20,587 nucleotides of DNA from a virus (Duplodnaviria; Heunggongvirae; Uroviricota; Caudoviricetes), in IMG/VR virus record IMGVR_UViG_3300029862_000030, positions 1 to 20,587 of that record; one strand, written 5' to 3'. Positions 3,873 through 18,434 of the stretch are shown piece after piece. A program made the translations under genes and the position numbers. How positions within the stretch are numbered: position 1 is the first letter of the stretch; each line of letters opens with the position of its first letter. A model generated the notes under the pieces. The model saw only the letters and a list, made by a program, of their open reading frames with translations, ran no database searches and was not told where the DNA came from.

Positions 3873-4561
3873 TCACTGAGACACTATTAAAAGCGCGTTT
3901 TCCAGTCCGGCAAATGGATCTGAGACGCCTTCTGTCTGCTCCTGCTCCCACTGAAGAAGCGCATCATTCAGTGGCACTTTGACCCCCTGCGCACCGTAAA
4001 CAGCTGAAACAATCTGGGCAGCCCGGATATCAGCCCGCTCGTCACCCAGCGGGCTGAACCTGTCAAATTCTGCCCACATCATGATTTCTGATGCGGACAT
4101 TTCCCGGCGTAACTCTGACAATGTGCGCCCCATCCTGAGCGCCAGCATCATCAGAAAACGCATCCCCGGAAGCGCTACTTTTTTTTAACCTCGCCGGCAT
4201 CACTGATCAGTTCCAGAGACTGCCGAAGAAGCCGCGCATGCACCGGGCCATACACGGCAATCACCTGTTCACGATCATCCTCTGAAAATACGGGTTGCAG
4301 TCCGGTATCACACAGAACATCAATGAACAGTTCAACATCTGCCTCCAGATTTCGGCGGGCGCGCTCCGCAACGGATAACGGTGTCTCATCATCTTTTGCT
4401 TTAACGATCTCCTGCCAGCGCAACCAGGCTTCTGCAGAAGGTTCCCGTAACACAACCGTTGCTCCCTCCCATTCAGGCACATCAACGGTTTTATGGCGAA
4501 ACCCCGACATCGTTGCCAGTGCCAGATTACGGATATTTTTAGTCATCACATCCATCCTCAT
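3873..4561 (-). CDS. Tail assembly chaperone GT fusion, made by a programmed -1 ribosomal frameshift from G into the T frame
   Basis: The slippery heptamer A_AAA_AAG lies at 4184..4178 (minus strand), just before the G stop TAG (4177..4175). Reading in the -1 frame gives KKVALPG followed by MRFLMMLALRMGRT..., which is exactly the 96-aa ORF 3873..4163 in the track. The frame arithmetic is consistent. Confidence 0.7.
4175..4561 (-). CDS. Tail assembly chaperone G (lambda gpG analog)
   Basis: 128-aa ORF immediately upstream of the tape measure. It ends ...GEVKKK with an A AAA AAG slippery heptamer at its 3' end. Confidence 0.75.
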   Translation of the reverse strand: MRMDVMTKNIRNLALATMSGFRHKTVDVPEWEGATVVLREPSAEAWLRWQEIVKAKDDETPLSVAERARRNLEADVELFIDVLCDTGLQPVFSEDDREQVIAVYGPVHARLLRQSLELISDAGEVKKK

Positions 4562-6852: not shown

Positions 6853-8070
6853 TTATTTGCCAGTGAGCGCCTTGATGGCTGCCACATCTTCCAGCACACA
6901 GTCAAAACGATGGAAAGCCAGAAATGCCACCTGATCAAACTCAGCATAACGCTCAACCAGACGTTTCAGTTCCATATAAGTAACGCGGCGAATGATAAAG
7001 CGGTTGAAATCCCCCAGGAAAATGAATTTTTTTCCGGTACCAATCCCGTCAATAGCCTGATCAATAACATAAGGGATCCCCAGCACAGTAGCCGGCGTAC
7101 CGCCTGCAATATCCGGCAGCCATAACGGGCGTTTCTGTCCATCCTCCATCTCTTCAATAGTCTGCAATGTGGCATCATTGAATGCCCAGCGGTATTTCGG
7201 CCCACCACGATATGCCGGATCAATGGCATGTTTCAGGGCATTCATTTCTTTCCAGGTGAAAGCGGCAGAGGCTGCAGTCTGGATGGTTCCCGTCACCGAC
7301 GCTGCCAGCCCTTTTGGCTGTAACGGTGATCCCGTTCCGGTCCCCTGAACCAGATATTTTGCCTCTCCACGACCAATACGCTGGGCAATACGGTTTGCCA
7401 GATAAGATTCAATATCCACCCCACTGTCCTGGAGCAGCTCATTGGACACACGAATTATTTTTGATGACAGCTTTTTAGCCCCCAGAATAGCGGTCCCGAA
7501 CGTCACATCCTGTTCCGTTGCGGCTGTATTTTCCGCCAGCAGTTCGCCCTCTTCAGTCGTGCCATCAGACGTTGACCAGGTGATATCCTGCCCGGTTGAT
7601 GTGGTCAGAAGTTGCGCCACACTGGCAATCCCGCCATAAGCCTTCATGGTGTCAATGATTTTGTTACGCATCTGCGTGGGCACCGTATATCCGCCCTGAG
7701 AATCCGTTGTTACACTCTGAGCCCGCAGTTCACGCATCAGATTACGCTCTTCAGCATTCAGTTCTGCAAATCCGGCACGCAGAAAACGGTTAAATGCCGC
7801 AGCGCGCTTCTCTTCCACCGCCTTTTTCCCGTTCTCCGCCTCATTATTCTGGCGCTCTTCCGGCCCGGACTCATCCACATATGCCTGATCCTGACGGCGC
7901 AACTCTTCTTCACGGGCGATTTGCTCATCCAGCGCATCCAGCTCAGCTTTCGCCCTGTTCCACTCTGCCCGTTGCTCATCAGTCCATGCGTTATCACCAA
8001 TTTTTTCATGCAGTGCACGCATATCCTTTGCAATGGTGTTTCGTTTTTGCTTCATCTCATGAAGTTTCAT
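6853..8070 (-). CDS. Major capsid protein, HK97 fold, with an N-terminal delta (scaffolding) domain
   Basis: 405-aa ORF. The N-terminal ~100 aa are charged and coiled-coil-like (delta domain), followed by a capsid-like body. It follows the prohead protease, as in HK97. Confidence 0.9.
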   Translation of the reverse strand: MKLHEMKQKRNTIAKDMRALHEKIGDNAWTDEQRAEWNRAKAELDALDEQIAREEELRRQDQAYVDESGPEERQNNEAENGKKAVEEKRAAAFNRFLRAGFAELNAEERNLMRELRAQSVTTDSQGGYTVPTQMRNKIIDTMKAYGGIASVAQLLTTSTGQDITWSTSDGTTEEGELLAENTAATEQDVTFGTAILGAKKLSSKIIRVSNELLQDSGVDIESYLANRIAQRIGRGEAKYLVQGTGTGSPLQPKGLAASVTGTIQTAASAAFTWKEMNALKHAIDPAYRGGPKYRWAFNDATLQTIEEMEDGQKRPLWLPDIAGGTPATVLGIPYVIDQAIDGIGTGKKFIFLGDFNRFIIRRVTYMELKRLVERYAEFDQVAFLAFHRFDCVLEDVAAIKALTGK

Positions 8071-10050: not shown

Positions 10051-11808
10051 TCACAGAATTAACAGGTCCTCATCAGGATCAAGCGTGGACAGAAAGTCAT
10101 TCACGCCCCCGCCATTTACCAGAAAGCGGCTCATGGCTGTAAAAAGCGCAACAGGGCCGTCGATTTTGGCTTCCGGCGTGGATTTATTCGGGAAGATGTT
10201 GTCGTTTTTGTCCGGTTTTACAGTAACGTTAGACATCATCCAGTTCATGACCGGATGATTGCTGTGATGGAAACGCCCGGCATAAACCAGTGATTCCGTT
10301 TCCTTCATGGCCTCTGACAGATTGCGGACCGTCTGCGGAACCTCCACCAGCGGTATCCCTTCTTCAGCCAGTGCCAGGCTGAACTGCATTGCGCTCCACG
10401 GGTCAAATCCCAGTTCCCTGAGGTTTTCACCGCCAATCCATTCCAGTAAGTCACTTTTTATCTGAGCATGATCGATAACATCACCATCCGTCAGGATGAG
10501 CTTATCCATCTCCGCCCACTTCCGGTAAAGTTCTGCCTGCTGCCGCGAGCATCGCTCCAGCCGTCCTTCCGGAAGCCAGAATTTAAAATCAGCATGAACA
10601 TGTCCGTTATCGGTTCGCCAGAGTTTTGCCGCCGCACAGATATCAATCTTATGAGCAAGGTCTACGCCGACCCACATGGGATATGTTTTCAGCTCATGTT
10701 GTGGAGCAATGTATTCGCACTTCTCCCACTTAATCATATCCATCCAGGCAGATTCGGCAGTGACCCACACATTCATGTGTTTGGTAAAAAAATTCACCCG
10801 CGCAGAGACCTGCTCCTTCGCTTTTTTCGCCAGACGACGCAGATCATCCCAGCGTTTACAGATGCCCAGGCCAGGATTCGCTTTCTGCCAGACCGTTTCA
10901 TCAAACGGATCATCTCCCTCATCAAGCGTGTAAATGATCGCAAAGTAAGAGTCGTCTTTTACAGCGCCCTCCACGTCGCTGTTATAGCCTCGCAATACCT
11001 TGATGGCGTAATCACGCTGCTCGTAACAAATCCCTTCCTTGTTAAAGCCAGCCGTGGTGATACCAAATAACAGGGACTGCAGACGGGCACCGGTTGCCGT
11101 TTCCAGAACGTCCCACACGTCGCGGGTTTTATGTGCATGCAGCTCATCAATAATGGCGCAGTGGATGTTCAGACCGTCCAGGTTGTTTGCATCCGAGGAA
11201 AGCGGTTCAAATTTTGATGCGCTCTGCTCCTGGTAAATCGCCAGCTTGTTGAAATCAAACAACCGCCCGAGTGTCGACCGGGCTTTTCTGACCATATTTT
11301 TGGCGTCTTCAAACACGATTCTGGCCTGGTCACGCGTGGTTGCGGCTGAATACACCTCAGCTCCGCCTTCACTATCTGCCCCCGTCATATACAGGCCGAT
11401 ACCCGATGACAGTGTTGATTTTGCGTTTTTACGGGCGACTTCGTTGTACGCCGTCCGGAACCGGCGCACCATCACCGGACGTCCGCTGCCATCGCTGCGC
11501 ATGACAACTTCCCCGGTTTCTTCATTGACCAGCGGAATGACAAAACCAAAAATATTAATGAGGATAAATACATGCCAGTCCATCAACTCAATGGGCTGGC
11601 CTGCCAGTGCCCCTTTTACATGAGGCACAAATTTGTAGAAATTCAGGATGTGCTGCGCACGGGGTTCACTGAAATAAATCCCCCGCTTTTCGCCGTACTT
11701 CAGATCATCAAGAAAACGCTGGCAGGCCAGGCGGACAAATTCGCCAGCAACAATTTCTCCTGCAACAACACGTTCGGCGTAGCGGATCCCGTCAGCCACT
11801 TTTGCCAT
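10051..11808 (-). CDS. Terminase large subunit
   Basis: 585-aa ORF. The start overlaps the small-subunit stop, and it sits upstream of the portal. Confidence 0.9.
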   Translation of the reverse strand: MAKVADGIRYAERVVAGEIVAGEFVRLACQRFLDDLKYGEKRGIYFSEPRAQHILNFYKFVPHVKGALAGQPIELMDWHVFILINIFGFVIPLVNEETGEVVMRSDGSGRPVMVRRFRTAYNEVARKNAKSTLSSGIGLYMTGADSEGGAEVYSAATTRDQARIVFEDAKNMVRKARSTLGRLFDFNKLAIYQEQSASKFEPLSSDANNLDGLNIHCAIIDELHAHKTRDVWDVLETATGARLQSLLFGITTAGFNKEGICYEQRDYAIKVLRGYNSDVEGAVKDDSYFAIIYTLDEGDDPFDETVWQKANPGLGICKRWDDLRRLAKKAKEQVSARVNFFTKHMNVWVTAESAWMDMIKWEKCEYIAPQHELKTYPMWVGVDLAHKIDICAAAKLWRTDNGHVHADFKFWLPEGRLERCSRQQAELYRKWAEMDKLILTDGDVIDHAQIKSDLLEWIGGENLRELGFDPWSAMQFSLALAEEGIPLVEVPQTVRNLSEAMKETESLVYAGRFHHSNHPVMNWMMSNVTVKPDKNDNIFPNKSTPEAKIDGPVALFTAMSRFLVNGGGVNDFLSTLDPDEDLLIL

Positions 11809-12290
11809 CAGTCTCTCGCTTTTAAAAGCTCTGCCAGCGGATCAACATTATCCGGTCCGGCGGTATTTACTTTTGCCCGGCTTGCCGGTGACATACCAAA
11901 TTCTGCAAGCATCGCCCGGATCCGCTTCCAGGCATCCGCTTTCATCGCAGCAGCTGGGTGTGCCTTAATCAGCACATCACCGTTCTGCGTTTCCGAGCGG
12001 TAGGTGTACCCCTCAACATCGAGTGTTTCGCAGTGATGCCGGTATTCGGTATAGGCTTCCACCAGTAGCTCAAGCGCACGCGCATCAAGCTGAGAAATGA
12101 TCCCTTCCGCATTCAGCTCTTCCGCCATTCGCCTGAACCAGTACTTCCCCTGCGCCCCTAAATGTTGCGGAATTTTAGGGAGACCTTTTTCATCCTTTTT
12201 AGCGGTTTTTTTGAGGTCTTTAACTGGCCGCTTTGAGGGGTTGCCTCGTATCAAATGCAGGCGTGGCGGGGTTTTCGGGGGTCCAGACAT
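11808..12290 (-). CDS. Terminase small subunit (P27 family type)
   Basis: 160-aa ORF immediately upstream of the large subunit with which it overlaps. It has a basic N-terminus (KRPVKDLKKTAKKDEKG). Confidence 0.75.
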   Translation of the reverse strand: MSGPPKTPPRLHLIRGNPSKRPVKDLKKTAKKDEKGLPKIPQHLGAQGKYWFRRMAEELNAEGIISQLDARALELLVEAYTEYRHHCETLDVEGYTYRSETQNGDVLIKAHPAAAMKADAWKRIRAMLAEFGMSPASRAKVNTAGPDNVDPLAELLKARD

Positions 12291-12519
12291 AATCGGTTTT
12301 ACCTATCAATCATTTAATCACATTCCAAAAAAAAGTTTTCGAACCTGCGGCGATGCGAGGAAAGGTCAGGCGGCGGTACTGAGCAGCCTGGGTTGCAGAG
12401 ATTTGATCCCCCCCCTCCCCCTTGAAGATGGCGGCAAAAAGCAGATACTGGCCACCCATCAGGATGCTCAGCATGGTGTATTCAGTTAATCTCAATAAAT
12501 AAAAGATGGAGTCTAAGAA

Positions 12520-13035
12520 ATGGATAAAACCAGAAAATATGACAGAGCCTTACAACTTGAAATCCTCAATGCCCTTATAGATTGCGCGCCTAACTCTTTA
12601 AACAAGGCACAGGAGCGAGACCTCATTGAGAAGTTTGACAGTTACGATCACTTTGTGGCGTGCATGTTATACCTTGAAATGCATGGTCTCGTTTCCACCC
12701 CCTTCATACGCAGTGACACCATGGCTGGCGTTGAGTTTATCTTCTGTGCCCCTAACTGCTACATTACAGAAAAAGGAATTGATTTTCTTCTCGATGATGG
12801 CGGCTTAAGTGCGATCCTTAAAGTTCAGACCTTTCGGTTACACAGTGACACGATTGTTGCCCTTGAGGATATAATCCGTGTCGCAAATATATCTGAAGAT
12901 CAGAAGAAGGGATTGATTTCAAAACTCCGAGAGCTTCCGGGAGACGCCATAAAACATTTGACCCTACAGTTACTGACTCAGGGGGTTCTGAATCTGCCGA
13001 ACGCACTTCGACTAATTCAAACAACCCTCCAGTAG
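12520..13035 (+). CDS. Hypothetical protein, unknown function; AT-rich gene on the opposite strand to the late operon
   Basis: 171-aa plus-strand ORF with a GGAG Shine-Dalgarno sequence 9 nt upstream of the ATG. Base composition is visibly more AT-rich than the flanking late genes. It is inserted between the HNH endonuclease and the small terminase gene. Confidence 0.6.
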   Translation: MDKTRKYDRALQLEILNALIDCAPNSLNKAQERDLIEKFDSYDHFVACMLYLEMHGLVSTPFIRSDTMAGVEFIFCAPNCYITEKGIDFLLDDGGLSAILKVQTFRLHSDTIVALEDIIRVANISEDQKKGLISKLRELPGDAIKHLTLQLLTQGVLNLPNALRLIQTTLQ

Positions 13036-13170
13036 GGCTAAACTCATCTGAGGGGCGAATTAACTCAAATTTGCCCCATCCCAGTTTTTCACTTAAAACA
13101 ACCCAAAATCCCTCCCGGGTATCTGCATGAATATAGAAACTATTTTTATGCATTACAGCAGTGAATATTA

Positions 13171-13521
13171 TCATCGAATACGTTCCCTTGCTGTCTTCTC
13201 TCTGTGGCATTCCCTGCATAACGACTCAAGATTGGAGTCATCATCGGTGCCGCCATGAGCTTTTGGAATCATGTGGTCTACAGTCCTGGCCTCAACGGCT
13301 CGTCCATTGCGCAGACAGTTCTTACACAGATGGTTATCACGCTTCAGTATACGCGCACGTATAACATCCCATTTCGAGCCATAGCCACGCTGGTGGCGAC
13401 TCAGTCCGCGTTGATGCTGTACCCATCCTTCACCACGATGTTTATCGCAGTAACCAGAACTGTCTGTGGTTGTACCTGCGCATCCACGCTTACGGCAGGC
13501 ACGTGGGATTCGTGATGGCAT
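13171..13521 (-). CDS. HNH endonuclease (packaging-associated, HK97 gp74-like)
   Basis: 116-aa ORF with Cys pairs flanking an H-N-H motif region (CKNCLRNGRAVEARTVDHMIPKAHGGTDDDSNLESLCRECHREK). Confidence 0.85.
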   Translation of the reverse strand: MPSRIPRACRKRGCAGTTTDSSGYCDKHRGEGWVQHQRGLSRHQRGYGSKWDVIRARILKRDNHLCKNCLRNGRAVEARTVDHMIPKAHGGTDDDSNLESLCRECHREKTARERIR

Positions 13522-15338: not shown

Positions 15339-15344
15339 GCATGT

Positions 15345-15374
15345 AAAAAGGCCCCAACACATGTGCGTGGGGCC
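15345..15374 (-). terminator. Candidate minus-strand intrinsic terminator upstream of the holin (possible tR'-like element)
   Basis: Minus-strand reading gives a GGCCCCA/TGGGGCC stem around an 11-nt loop containing the palindrome CACATGTG, followed by TTTTTAC. Confidence 0.45.
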
Positions 15375-15574
15375 TGAGAGTATACATGGTTTCAGTCAAC
15401 TGCATGGTGCCGGGTGCCTCCCGGTGAATTCAGTACCAGCACCTGAATCCGCGATTATCCCATATACCTACTCGCTGATTGCCCATCCGCACAGGGGGAT
15501 TCACCATGCCAGTTTCTTTTAACAAACTCCCCGCAAAACAGACAACTGTCAACCGTCTGAATTGTGAGACATTT

Positions 15575-15614: not shown

Positions 15615-15691
15615 TGGCGCGTTGTACTGGATTCGAACCAGTGACCGATTGCTTAGAAGGCAATTGCTCTGTCCGGTTGAGCTAACAACGC
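15615..15691 (-). tRNA. tRNA-Arg (anticodon TCT, reads AGA), argO-like
   Basis: Hand-folded from the reverse complement: acceptor stem GCGTTGT/ACAACGC, D arm GCTC..GAGC, anticodon stem ATTGC/GCAAT with loop CTTCTAA, T arm CTGGTTCGAATCCAG, discriminator G and an encoded CCA. Similar to E. coli argU. Confidence 0.8.
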
Positions 15692-15704
15692 AGGGTACAG
15701 ATAA

Positions 15705-15781
15705 TGGACCGCCATCGAGGACTCGAACCCCGCGCAACCAGCTTCGAAGGCTGGTGCTCTATCCTGATGAGCTAATGGCGG
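15705..15781 (-). tRNA. tRNA-Arg (anticodon TCG as read by hand, reads CGA), argN-like
   Basis: Hand-folded: acceptor stem CCGCCAT/ATGGCGG (C1-G72), D stem GCTC/GAGC, anticodon stem CCAGC/GCTGG with loop CTTCGAA, T arm CGGGGTTCGAGTCCTCG and an encoded CCA. The anticodon call depends on my loop assignment. Confidence 0.65.
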
Positions 15782-15788
15782 TATGTGA

Positions 15789-15864
15789 TGGTGGCCCTTG
15801 CTGGATTTGAACCAGCGACCTGGCGATTATGAGTCGCTCGCTCTCACCACTGAGCTAAAGGGCC
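15789..15864 (-). tRNA. tRNA-Ile2 (anticodon CAT, lysidine type, reads AUA), ileZ/ileX-like
   Basis: Hand-folded 76-nt sequence GGCCCTTTAGCTCAGTGGTGAGAGCGAGCGACTCATAATCGCCAGGTCGCTGGTTCAAATCCAGCAAGGGCCACCA, which closely resembles E. coli tRNA-Ile2 (ileX) as recalled. Anticodon loop CTCATAA. Confidence 0.8.
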
Positions 15865-15904: not shown

Positions 15905-16243
15905 TCATCCGTTCTGGCTGACTAAATCCTGTACTTCCCGAACCGTCTGCTCAAAACGTTCAGTCTCCAGCTCAACGCCAATTGCACGACGCCCGAGCGC
16001 CAGTGCCGCTTTCACTGTCGAACCCGACCCCATGAAAAAATCTGCAATCAGGTCACCCGGACGACTGCTAGCGCTGATTATCTGCTGCAGCATTTCTGCC
16101 GGTTTTTCGCACGGATGTTTCCCGGGATAGAACTGCACCGGTTTATGCGTCCAGACATCGGTATACGGCACCTGCGCCGTCACGCCAAAATACCGCCGCA
16201 GTCGGCATTCACAACCACCAGCGCATTTAACGTTCAGGCACAA
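15905..16243 (-). pseudogene. 5'-truncated DNA N6-adenine/N4-cytosine methyltransferase remnant (C-terminal part only)
   Basis: The 112-aa ORF contains HPCEKP (the HPTQKP-type motif) and DFFMGSGST (the FxGxG AdoMet-binding motif) near its C-terminus. These are the C-terminal half of beta-class amino-methyltransferases. No DPPY motif or N-terminal half is present; the reading frame runs into the AT-rich region upstream of the porin. Confidence 0.6.
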
Positions 16244-16693
16244 AAAAACCCGCTCATCGGCGGGTTTAAGCTGTGTGACGAAGTAACTACTCTTAACAGC
16301 ATAACCAATTTTTTACGTACGTAAACTACTAAATGATATTTGTGAGAATGCCACCGAGTGTTCAAAACACCACCACAAATACATAAGAAAATTTCAACAA
16401 ATAACCAATTAATAATTTCAGATGTTATTTTTAGTTTGTTTAAATTAAGCTAAAGAATTATAGACTGCTTATAAATAAGTTCCATTAATATAAATTAGCT
16501 AATAGATTTATTTTTGTTCAAACAAGAGCCATAAATAGGATTAGATAGAAAAGGTTCAGATAAAAATAGAGATCTACTTCACAAATTAAATGAGAAACTA
16601 AAACTTACATCTTGAAATAATCACATTGATTAGATGAATATTTATCGCGCAGTGACATCATTTTTTAATAATAGTTCAAAAAAAGGGTGTACA

Positions 16694-17776
16694 ATGAAAA
16701 AATTAACAGTGGCAATTTCTGCTGTAGCTGCATCAGTACTGATGGCGATGTCTGCTCAGGCAGCTGAAATTTATAATAAAGACAGTAACAAGCTGGATCT
16801 ATACGGGAAAGTTAATGCCAAGCACTACTTCTCCTCTAATGATGCAGATGATGGTGATACTACTTATGCCCGTCTTGGCTTCAAAGGTGAAACCCAAATC
16901 AACGATCAACTGACTGGTTTCGGTCAGTGGGAATATGAATTCAAAGGCAACCGCGCTGAATCTCAAGGTTCTTCCAAAGACAAAACCCGTCTTGCATTTG
17001 CAGGCCTGAAATTTGGTGATTACGGCTCAATCGATTACGGCCGTAACTACGGTGTAGCATACGACATCGGTGCGTGGACTGACGTTCTGCCAGAATTCGG
17101 TGGTGATACCTGGACCCAAACAGATGTGTTCATGACTGGTCGCACTACTGGTGTTGCAACTTATCGTAACAACGACTTCTTTGGTCTGGTCGATGGCCTG
17201 AACTTTGCTGCTCAGTATCAGGGTAAAAATGACCGCACTGACGTAACTGAAGCCAATGGTGATGGTTTCGGTTTCTCCACTACTTATGAGTATGAAGGAT
17301 TCGGCGTGGGTGCAACCTATGCTAAATCAGATCGCACTGACGGTCAGGTCGCCTATGGTAAGAGCAAATTCAATGCCTCCGGCAAAAATGCGGAAGTATG
17401 GGCTGCAGGCCTGAAATATGATGCGAACAATATCTATCTGGCTACCACATATTCTGAAACTCAGAATATGACCGTTTTTGGTAATAACCATATTGCAAAC
17501 AAAGCACAAAACTTTGAAGCAGTAGCACAATATCAGTTTGACTTCGGTCTGCGCCCATCTGTTGCTTACCTTCAGTCAAAAGGTAAAGACCTTGGTGTTC
17601 ATGGTGACCGAGACTTAGTCAAGTATGTCGATGTCGGTGCTACTTACTACTTTAATAAAAACATGTCCACTTTTGTTGATTACAAAATCAACTTAATTGA
17701 CGATAGTAAGTTTACCAAAACAGCTGATATTGATACCGACGACATCGTCGCTGTAGGTCTGGTTTACCAGTTCTAA
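16694..17776 (+). CDS. nmpC: Outer membrane general porin, NmpC/OmpC/OmpD family
   Basis: The track ORF 16634..17776 contains the signal peptide [23 protein letters not shown] followed by [16 protein letters not shown] and a C-terminal ...VGLVYQF beta-barrel signature, matching NmpC as recalled. The start was trimmed to the MKKL Met; my nucleotide count in that line disagrees with the track frame by 1 nt, so the start is good to about 1 nt. It is on the opposite strand to the phage late genes and preceded by about 370 nt of very AT-rich DNA. Confidence 0.9.
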
Positions 17777-17965: not shown

Positions 17966-18349
17966 TTAATTAGAGTTATTAACAACGATATCCATCTCTA
18001 ACTGGATATCTAATGCCATTAACATCCCTTCAATTATGCCCTCAGCCTTCTGTAACCTTTTCCCGATATAACCATCAGAGCAGCAATGCTTACCTGCCAG
18101 TGACATGAATGTCATACCGACTACATAATAATCTACTAATAAATCGTGCAAATCGCTGTTGTTCTTTTTCAGACGGGCCATGCACCCGCAAATGATCATA
18201 GCGTCATCGTCACAACATTGCGGGCGAGATTTTACTTTTGAAGTAATTAATCCCTTAAAACCGGCGGCAATGGACGACCAGGTCACATCTTCATGATTAT
18301 TAGCCGCCCACGCTCCCCAACGCTCAAGAACCATCTGAATATCACGCAT
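17966..18349 (-). CDS. Late-gene antiterminator Q (DLP12 QuuD-like)
   Basis: The 127-aa product from the ATG at 18349 ([22 protein letters not shown]...) matches my recollection of E. coli QuuD. The track ORF starts 5 codons earlier at an alternative TTG. It lies downstream of rusA and ylcG, as in DLP12. Confidence 0.8.
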
Positions 18350-18434
18350 CAACTTACTCCACAAAAATCAGACCAGAACGCCAATTACAAGCAAAAATCA
18401 ACAAAACAGTATTAGTTGATTGTTATCTCTGACT

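Follow-up and report, generated by a model that had tools for sequence, protein, structure and literature searches.

The DNA analysed here, referred to as the window, is a stretch of 20,587 nucleotides (nt) from a tailed phage (IMG/VR record IMGVR_UViG_3300029862_000030), and we focus on two genes located between its HNH endonuclease gene and the gene for the small terminase subunit. One of them, the open reading frame (ORF) ORF171, lies on the plus strand and codes for a protein of 171 amino acids (aa), while the other, which we call the partner gene, is unannotated and lies on the minus strand. From the comparative evidence given below, the 3' parts of both genes appear to occupy the same DNA, with a protein encoded on each strand. 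The features of the locus are the following.

12520..13035, plus strand: ORF171, 171 aa, ATG start, the gene flagged by an earlier note on this DNA
12508-12511, plus strand: GGAG, ribosome-binding site of ORF171, 8 nt 5' of the ATG
12818..13174, minus strand: partner gene, unannotated, 118 aa plus stop, with its ATG at 13174-13172
12818..13035, both strands: dual-coding stretch of 218 nt, predicted to encode both proteins on opposite strands
13171..13174, minus strand: ATGA, the partner start codon over the HNH stop codon (cgATGAtaa)
13183..13189, minus strand: Shine-Dalgarno-like AAGGGAA, 8 nt before the partner ATG and inside the 3' end of the HNH gene
13171..13521, minus strand: HNH endonuclease gene, neighbour (Pfam HNH, E=9e-16), with its last 24 codons within the swapped segment described below
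11808..12290, minus strand: small terminase subunit gene (terS, P27-type), neighbour (Terminase_4, E=5e-25)

The products of the two genes

ORF171 and the HNH gene converge, and ORF171 is located upstream of the small terminase gene. Its GC content is 0.444, against 0.51-0.53 in terS and in the HNH/lysis flanks, and its product is acidic, with an isoelectric point of 5.33. In all of this, as well as in the plus-strand frame and its GGAG site, our results agree with the earlier note, which had described the gene from its letters. Profile searches gave a match to phrog_3983, covering residues 5-171 on profile positions 2-164 of 165 (E=1e-56, 192 bits). This is a nameless PHROG family of unknown function, with no assigned role and no Pfam or NCBIfam model. 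We identified 194 homologues in the 90% database, every one labelled "hypothetical," in Escherichia, Citrobacter, Enterobacter, Salmonella, Klebsiella, Serratia, Yersinia, Proteus, Xenorhabdus, Edwardsiella, and Vibrio. When the 50% identity representatives were searched with a profile, 1025 proteins were recovered, nearly all of 155-175 aa and matching over their full length, and the identical ORF171 protein is found on about 1000 contigs. Given the full-length family match, the number of homologues, and the confidently predicted N-terminal fold, ORF171 is more than a chance ORF. In two viral contigs (L092 and L094), the sense frame has 283 aa and matches ORF171 only from residue 41 on, which may reflect a fusion or an N-terminal replacement.

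For both proteins, the searches of Pfam, NCBIfam, and PADLOC ended with no significant match. The anti-phage defence models of PADLOC-DB v2 produced zero matches at E values up to 1 for both, and no known toxin-antitoxin family was matched by ORF171 or the partner. A role in defence or anti-defence, which the earlier note lists among those often seen at such positions, is suggested by position and finds no direct backing in these searches. In the literature, searched by family name, accession, phage name, and concept, we found neither gene described, nor their overlap or a function.

The AlphaFold model of ORF171, made from a 40-sequence alignment (mean predicted local distance difference test score [pLDDT], 79.6), has three parts. 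Residues 9-91 (pLDDT >90) form three helices, a beta hairpin, and a further helix, that is, a predicted winged helix with a YjcQ-like fold, in line with the suspicion of the earlier note that the N-terminal half contained a domain of this type. Residues 93-107 (DDGGLSAILKVQT.RLH; pLDDT <50) make up a linker that is very conserved, and residues 108-170 are modelled as a four-helix domain (pLDDT, 66-82). The winged helix shares its fold with the solved YjcQ structure of Bacillus subtilis (PF09639; PDB 2HGC). At the sequence level, the Pfam YjcQ model (PF09639) missed its gathering threshold of 23.3 on residues 37-102 (12.5 bits, E=0.18), and MarR-family models gave no match. We know of no function for YjcQ. 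Compared with YjcQ and MarR-type proteins, ORF171 adds the conserved linker and the four-helix domain, and its winged helix is acidic. The linker (window positions 12796-12840) is the best-conserved part of the protein, with D93, G95, L96, L100, V102, and H108 invariant or nearly so, and it probably folds on a partner or within an oligomer. It is dual-coded only where the overlap is unusually long, as in the window, and lies outside the overlap elsewhere. Overall, the model indicates a cytoplasmic acidic protein consisting of a YjcQ/MarR-like winged helix, the conserved linker, and a four-helix C-terminal domain, soluble and with no membrane segments.

Two other resemblances were examined and rejected. 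A match to staphylococcal protein A among the PDB profiles (E=2e-10) is an artefact of five tandem B-domain repeats of about 8-9 bits each being summed; a single B domain scores only E of about 0.2 in the same kind of search, and Pfam PF02216, the B-domain model, gives E=0.03-0.1 (13-15 bits versus a threshold of 27). A ribbon-helix-helix formed by the linker and the first helices was considered from the low monomer pLDDT and a beta-alpha-alpha-like pattern, and it was ruled out by the lack of Pfam support and by polar residues lacking the alternation of a DNA-binding strand.

The partner product, which across loci measures roughly 100-118 aa, begins in the window with MIIFTAVMHKNSFYIHADTREGFWVVLSEKLGWGKFELIRPSDEFSPTGGLFELVEVRSADSEPPESVTVGSNVLWRLPEALGVLKSIPSSDLQ... 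and includes the peptide LGWGKFELIRPSDEF. Codons 1-46 of the gene are located in the 135-nt interval between ORF171 and the HNH gene, an apparent spacer that is not intergenic, as it encodes the start of the partner; the last 72 codons and the stop are antisense to ORF171. AlphaFold (16 sequences) predicts a five-stranded beta domain over the first 60 to 70 residues (pLDDT, 81-91), the last strand of which (residues 49-58) is encoded within the overlap, followed by low-confidence helices and a disordered tail. The best PHROG match of this protein reached only E=0.27. As the partner ATG overlaps the HNH stop codon, the ATGA arrangement implies, as far as gene layout can tell, translational coupling of the partner to the late operon. 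A GGGGCG...CGCCCC hairpin after the ORF171 stop was discarded as a terminator, as it is not conserved in Proteus and is explained by the WG(K/R)F..IRP codons of the partner.

Evidence for dual coding

In the overlap, sense codon position 1 faces antisense position 1, sense position 3 faces antisense position 2, and sense position 2 faces antisense position 3. The same arrangement recurs in other loci, where the overlap measures 125-227 nt. The sequence 3' of the ORF171 stop is conserved between very different loci and ends as the reverse complement of a ribosome-binding site plus ATG. Read on the minus strand, each of these loci has an ORF that starts about 135-150 nt past the ORF171 stop and reaches, antisense, into the last 40-75 codons of the ORF171 homologue. 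In 13 out of 13 divergent loci, the aligned position has an ATG with a purine-rich (Shine-Dalgarno-like) stretch before it. In 20 of 27 loci, the sense-1/antisense-1 frame runs for 84-204 codons with no stop, and the two remaining antisense frames are usually far shorter (2-55 codons in enterobacterial loci).

We evaluated how easily such a frame arises by chance with a codon shuffle, in which each ORF171 protein sequence was held and its synonymous codons were permuted, using a within-gene permutation and a second null. In each of 16 divergent loci, including those from Salmonella, Proteus, Edwardsiella, Yersinia, Pseudomonas, and Acinetobacter, the antisense frame would be open by chance with P=0.0002-0.044 (within-gene permutation) or 0-0.016 (second null); as the loci are related by descent, these values are not fully independent. 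Over the overlap, 2.1-6.3 antisense stops were expected in these loci and 0 were observed. At the conserved Ile144-Lys145 pair the rare ATA codon is used (GCC ATA AAA in the window), and Ile144 must be ATA because ATT or ATC followed by A would make an antisense stop.

Synonymous sites tell the same story. Among sequence pairs of <70% identity, sites with the same amino acid also had the same codon in 36% of cases at residues 2-116 versus 61% at residues 117-171. A natural control is provided by a partner-less subfamily (L038, L039, L040, and L043; the hosts of L038, L040, and L043 are Serratia, Silvania, and Enterobacter), with proteins of 155-163 aa that keep the winged helix and the DDGGL..ILNVQT..H linker and have a different, shorter C terminus; here the figures were 44% outside versus 38% in the corresponding C-terminal part. 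Divergence at codon positions 1/2/3 was 0.49/0.40/0.67 in the winged helix, 0.33/0.16/0.68 in the conserved linker just outside the overlap (residues 93-116), and 0.33/0.21/0.34 in the overlap. As the equally conserved linker keeps a third-position divergence of 0.68, protein conservation alone does not explain the loss of synonymous change. The 45 non-overlapping codons of the partner, for their part, show the signature of a coding sequence (0.43/0.31/0.64).

The partner is also widely retained, with 52 of 56 distinct sequences (80 viral contigs) keeping the partner as an ORF of 94 codons or more that hits its profile with E values of 1e-38 or lower. Some Acinetobacter assemblies annotate both genes, with an overlap of 161 nt. 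In Acinetobacter sp. C32I (L125), the partner is intact (104 aa, 4001-4315, plus strand) and the sense gene has been cut to its overlapped last 52 codons (4155-4313, minus strand), the remainder being replaced by an unrelated 365-aa gene.

Taken together, these several independent comparative signals indicate that 125-227 nt of each cassette encode both proteins and that the two genes are a convergent, antisense-overlapping pair. The earlier note had described ORF171 as a single gene expressed on its own, a description that does not hold in view of the overlapping 118-aa partner, which is operonic with the HNH gene. Long antisense overlaps between protein genes of prokaryotes are rare and contentious (PMC7457138; bioRxiv 10.1101/724807; PMC9927249), and antisense overlapping protein genes have been proposed in Escherichia coli O157:H7 (PMC9927249). 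The cassette resembles the latter in having two protein frames on opposite strands. It differs in that the pair is conserved across phages of Enterobacterales, Acinetobacter, and Pseudomonas, in that the partner extends past ORF171 as an ordinary coding region, and in that its support is comparative constraint instead of expression. The pair recurs in hundreds of prophages of these hosts, Stx prophages among them, and is missed by routine annotation. Part of the C-terminal conservation of a large unnamed phage family would then come from a second frame, which matters wherever function is inferred from conservation. The locus also makes a tractable test case, as single-base changes can kill one protein and be silent in the other, and it is relevant to the sharing of DNA by two folded proteins and to the way in which the accessory functions of prophages are changed over from lysogeny to lysis or back.

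Mobility and wiring of the cassette

An identical locus is found in phage PhiR49_2 of E. coli ECOR13. The close relatives vB_EcoS-813R8 and phi467 have the HNH gene about 148 bp from terS with nothing between them. Since the homology of the window to these two phages ends at 12420 and begins again at 13242, within the 3' part of the HNH gene, a segment of 821 bp stands here in place of about 90 bp.

12421..13241, both strands: mosaic segment, 821 bp in place of about 90 bp in related phages
12448..12465, plus strand: candidate operator CTGGCCACCCATCAGGAT, a degenerate palindrome copy (2 mismatches), 72 nt upstream of the ORF171 start at the presumed promoter

The segment contains the region upstream of ORF171, ORF171 itself, the partner gene, and a diverged HNH 3' end. 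The length of the HNH protein is unchanged with respect to 813R8, with the differences clustered in its C-terminal part, so by its sequence the segment looks like a mosaic exchange with another HNH-bearing phage and not like a simple insertion. A C-rich tract, CCCCCCCCTCCCCC, at 12409-12422 adjoins the left junction and may act as a hotspot for recombination or slippage. A cos site, which would be expected between the HNH gene and terS, was not located. The PhiR49_2 record (L001, PV340570.1) has no HNH gene called and lists a 61-aa plus-strand "hypothetical protein" (7031-7216) inside the HNH frame; it also lists a 49-aa minus-strand gene (window positions 12310-12459). Both calls look like miscalls. 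The latter corresponds to the minus-strand ORF at 12310-12495 of the window, which straddles the mosaic junction, has no support, and was judged spurious.

The occurrence check across relatives that had been suggested to us by the earlier note gave the patchy pattern expected of a moron, with the locus replaced by about 90 bp in 813R8 and phi467, varied genomic positions, and the ORF171 gene in only 28 of 5426 complete E. coli genomes, one copy being inside an Stx1d prophage. Relatives are located between the Q and holin genes in Salmonella and Klebsiella, between a pRha-type gene and the lysis region in one E. coli and next to a glycosyltransferase gene in another, and between the tape-measure gene and gpM in Proteus. 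In Edwardsiella phage GF-2, the homologue is just downstream of an Arc/Mnt-like gene, overlapping its end by 4 bp; in Acinetobacter phage AbIPP1, it is immediately downstream of cI, and in a Pseudomonas phage, it is near the repressor region. Two Salmonella loci (L005 and L007) keep the cassette, including the partner sequence, in a heavily decayed Gifsy-2-like remnant beside pepN, which may point to addiction or to an advantage for the host. From these contexts, the locus is best described as a mobile two-gene accessory cassette of prophages with an unusual dual-coding architecture.

With morons, a concept introduced for lambdoid and HK97-like phages (Hendrix/Juhala) and exemplified by bor, lom, and the porin gene of the window described below, ORF171 has in common its insertion between conserved genes, its patchy distribution, its lower GC, and its orientation against the late operon. 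The cassette differs from them in being a gene pair that shares opposite-strand DNA, with one member wired into the late operon, and a scan for its own promoter and terminator gave no clear candidate. Genes expressed in the lysogen are known behind repressors, such as lambda rexA/rexB after cI and P22 sieA near mnt. The ORF171 homologues of AbIPP1 and GF-2 are similarly placed, on the same strand and downstream of cI or of an Arc/Mnt-like gene. ORF171 has no sequence or fold relation to these proteins, and it is soluble, with no membrane segments. Positions behind repressor genes, or antisense to late genes, would fit expression in the lysogen, judging from location.

As to the wiring of the partner, among 59 distinct cassettes, the nearest upstream ORF (at least 80 aa) is co-directional with the partner in 55, and in these the gap between both genes is at most 35 nt in 45 cases, with an ATGA overlap in 21. 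The gene found upstream is not always the same one (HNH, tape measure, glycosyltransferase, Q, or pRha-type). With little room for a promoter of its own in most contexts, the partner is therefore expected to be transcribed with the operon of the host phage, which in Enterobacterales should be the late operon.

ORF171 homologues, for their part, have an upstream spacer of 100-240 nt. In 12 of 27 loci this region carries a palindrome, CTGAT-N5-ATCAGGAT with at most 2 mismatches (full form CTGATCAAATATCAGGAT), located 72-78 nt upstream of the start, with one more copy at 108 nt; the background rate is 0.0066 per 140 nt. The loci with the palindrome (the window, L009, L026, L030, L043, and L044, among others) include the partner-less subfamily, and a GATC site is present within several copies. 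An intrinsic terminator on the minus strand directly precedes the palindrome in L026 and L043, and the Salmonella and Klebsiella alleles share a different upstream block. We also considered a LexA box and rejected it; the palindrome reads CTG-N9-CAG, and LexA needs N10. The two minus-strand terminator-like hits of our promoter and terminator scan were no more than expected by chance.

A candidate lysogeny/lysis toggle and its alternatives

The picture that we favour is that of a dual-coding mobile cassette that acts as a toggle between lysogeny and lysis. ORF171 would be transcribed in the lysogen from its own regulated promoter, and the partner would be transcribed with the late operon after induction. 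Late transcription would then run antisense over ORF171 and shut it off, by transcriptional interference and/or formation of an RNA duplex, and the partner protein may also antagonise the ORF171 protein. The payload would be a protein of the prophage state, involved in exclusion, defence, or regulation, that is silenced during the lytic growth of the phage itself. We assign this overall picture, in which the toggle part is inferred, a probability of roughly 45%, and we hold any specific payload with much less confidence. That the cassette is a new type of prophage switch, in which the proteins from opposite strands are never expressed in the same phase, ORF171 being made in lysogeny and the partner during lytic growth, is somewhat unlikely; if true, an effector of the prophage state (for defence, exclusion, or regulation) would be linked through the shared DNA to its own off-switch, both physically and in its regulation.

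Several observations weigh against the toggle. Both proteins lack a match to any known family of defence, anti-defence, or toxin-antitoxin proteins. For ORF171, no consensus sigma-70 promoter turned up in a simple scan, and the AbIPP1 partner is not co-directional with its neighbours. The winged-helix domain of the ORF171 family has a mean net charge of -5, and across the family no conserved basic residues were found on the recognition helix or the wing, so DNA binding by this domain, and hence autoregulation at the palindrome, is doubtful. Last, each gene occurs intact without the other, in sense-only loci (L033, L113, L123, L124, and the whole partner-less subfamily) and partner-only loci (L037 and L125), so that the two genes need not depend strictly on each other in function.

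The sense-only loci would also suit the idea that ORF171 alone is functional, a single-gene moron, with the antisense ORF as a by-product of conserved sequence and the low synonymous change due to an RNA or DNA element or to recent transfer. Of the two genes, ORF171 is the only one listed by gene callers and PHROGs, calls of the partner amount to 17 clusters versus >190 for ORF171, and some intact ORF171 homologues have no partner. We nevertheless consider this very improbable, as the spacer part of the partner evolves as coding sequence and has a conserved ATG and ribosome-binding site, its product is predicted to fold confidently, the frame is open even in Pseudomonas and Acinetobacter despite 23-30% identity and a different GC content, the partner is intact where ORF171 has been destroyed, and the adjacent, equally conserved linker lacks the synonymous constraint. 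We give just as little credit to the converse, that the partner is an ordinary accessory of the late operon (a helper of HNH/terminase, tail, or lysis functions) whose 3' end was invaded by an unrelated moron, ORF171. The tight operonic association of the partner with HNH, tape-measure, glycosyltransferase, or Q genes speaks for it, but precisely because the upstream neighbour differs between phages (HNH, tape measure, Q, pRha, or glycosyltransferase) no single late function fits, and the two genes move between positions as one unit.

Two readings treat the genes as a functional pair of another kind. In a toxin-antitoxin or addiction module, ORF171 would be the antitoxin, with an N-terminal DNA-binding domain, a neutralising C-terminal domain, and autoregulation at the palindrome, and the beta protein of about 100 aa would be the toxin, or the roles would be reversed. 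Two small genes travelling as a pair in a highly mobile cassette, the antitoxin-like architecture of ORF171 (a winged helix and then a less ordered C-terminal domain), the palindrome at the presumed promoter, and the persistence of the cassette in the decayed Salmonella remnant near pepN would all suit such a module. It seems quite improbable, though, as type II systems are expected to be co-directional operons and not convergent genes with overlapping 3' ends, no known toxin or antitoxin family is matched, and both single-gene states occur naturally (the partner alone in L037 and L125; ORF171 homologues alone in L033, L113, L123, and L124). The other reading, a regulatory module of the life cycle comparable to P22 immI, with its mnt/arc/ant genes and an antisense RNA, or to the transcription-factor/small-protein modules of Silpe et al. 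2023, we regard as unlikely. Here, ORF171 would be a maintenance regulator and the partner a small, antirepressor-like effector released in lytic growth. This is suggested by the predicted winged-helix fold, by the GF-2 homologue, which judging by gene layout is co-transcribed with an Arc/Mnt-like gene beside arc-ant, by the AbIPP1 homologue behind cI, and by the presence of pRha, ANT, P22_AR, AntA, and ORF6N genes within a few kb of the cassette in E. coli L016, Proteus, GF-2, and Acinetobacter; the palindrome is consistent with it, and prophage modules of a transcription factor and a small ORF have been described (PMC10432266). Against it, those modules are divergently transcribed and neither convergent nor overlapping, the winged helix is acidic, and in the window, Salmonella, and Klebsiella the cassette lies a long way from any immunity region. 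The nearby antirepressor genes may be a coincidence, since such genes are common in temperate phages, and their enrichment near the cassette was judged not distinguishable from chance.

Compared with known systems, the proposed toggle has only partial counterparts. Convergent transcripts overlapping at their 3' ends are known from the type I toxin-antitoxin pairs bsrG/SR4 and txpA/RatA of Bacillus prophage-like elements and from the P22 sar RNA. The cassette resembles these in that its convergent units share 125-227 nt, which makes antisense control conceivable. It differs in that both strands encode conserved, predicted-folded proteins of 100-170 aa and in having no small hydrophobic toxin or non-coding RNA partner. 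In the transcription-factor/small-ORF modules of linear plasmid-like phages, the genes are divergent and non-overlapping and the small protein inactivates cI (PMC10432266). The cassette is similar in that a putative transcription-factor-like protein is paired with a small neighbour that belongs to no known family, and it differs in its convergent genes.

Other features of the window

Apart from ORF171, the window is not strictly minus-strand, since a gene at 16634-17776 also lies on the plus strand. This 380-aa ORF has a signal-peptide-like start, and from the look of its translation we take the product to be an OmpC/NmpC-type porin. It lies between a Q-like gene (17966-18364, minus strand) and the tRNA/lysis region, with an AT-rich stretch at 16200-17000, and the DNA upstream of it has a GC content of 28-31%. 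It looks like a second moron in the window, of the classical lysogenic-conversion type.

Upstream of the holin gene, Rfam identified the small RNA STnc100 (133 bits) and three tRNA genes at 15339-15538 and 15618-15864, both on the minus strand, and PhiR49_2 annotates tRNA-Arg, tRNA-Arg, and tRNA-Met at the matching place. A 112-aa ORF at 15905-16243 (minus strand), which corresponds to the "DNA adenine methylase" of PhiR49_2, looks like a short methyltransferase fragment.

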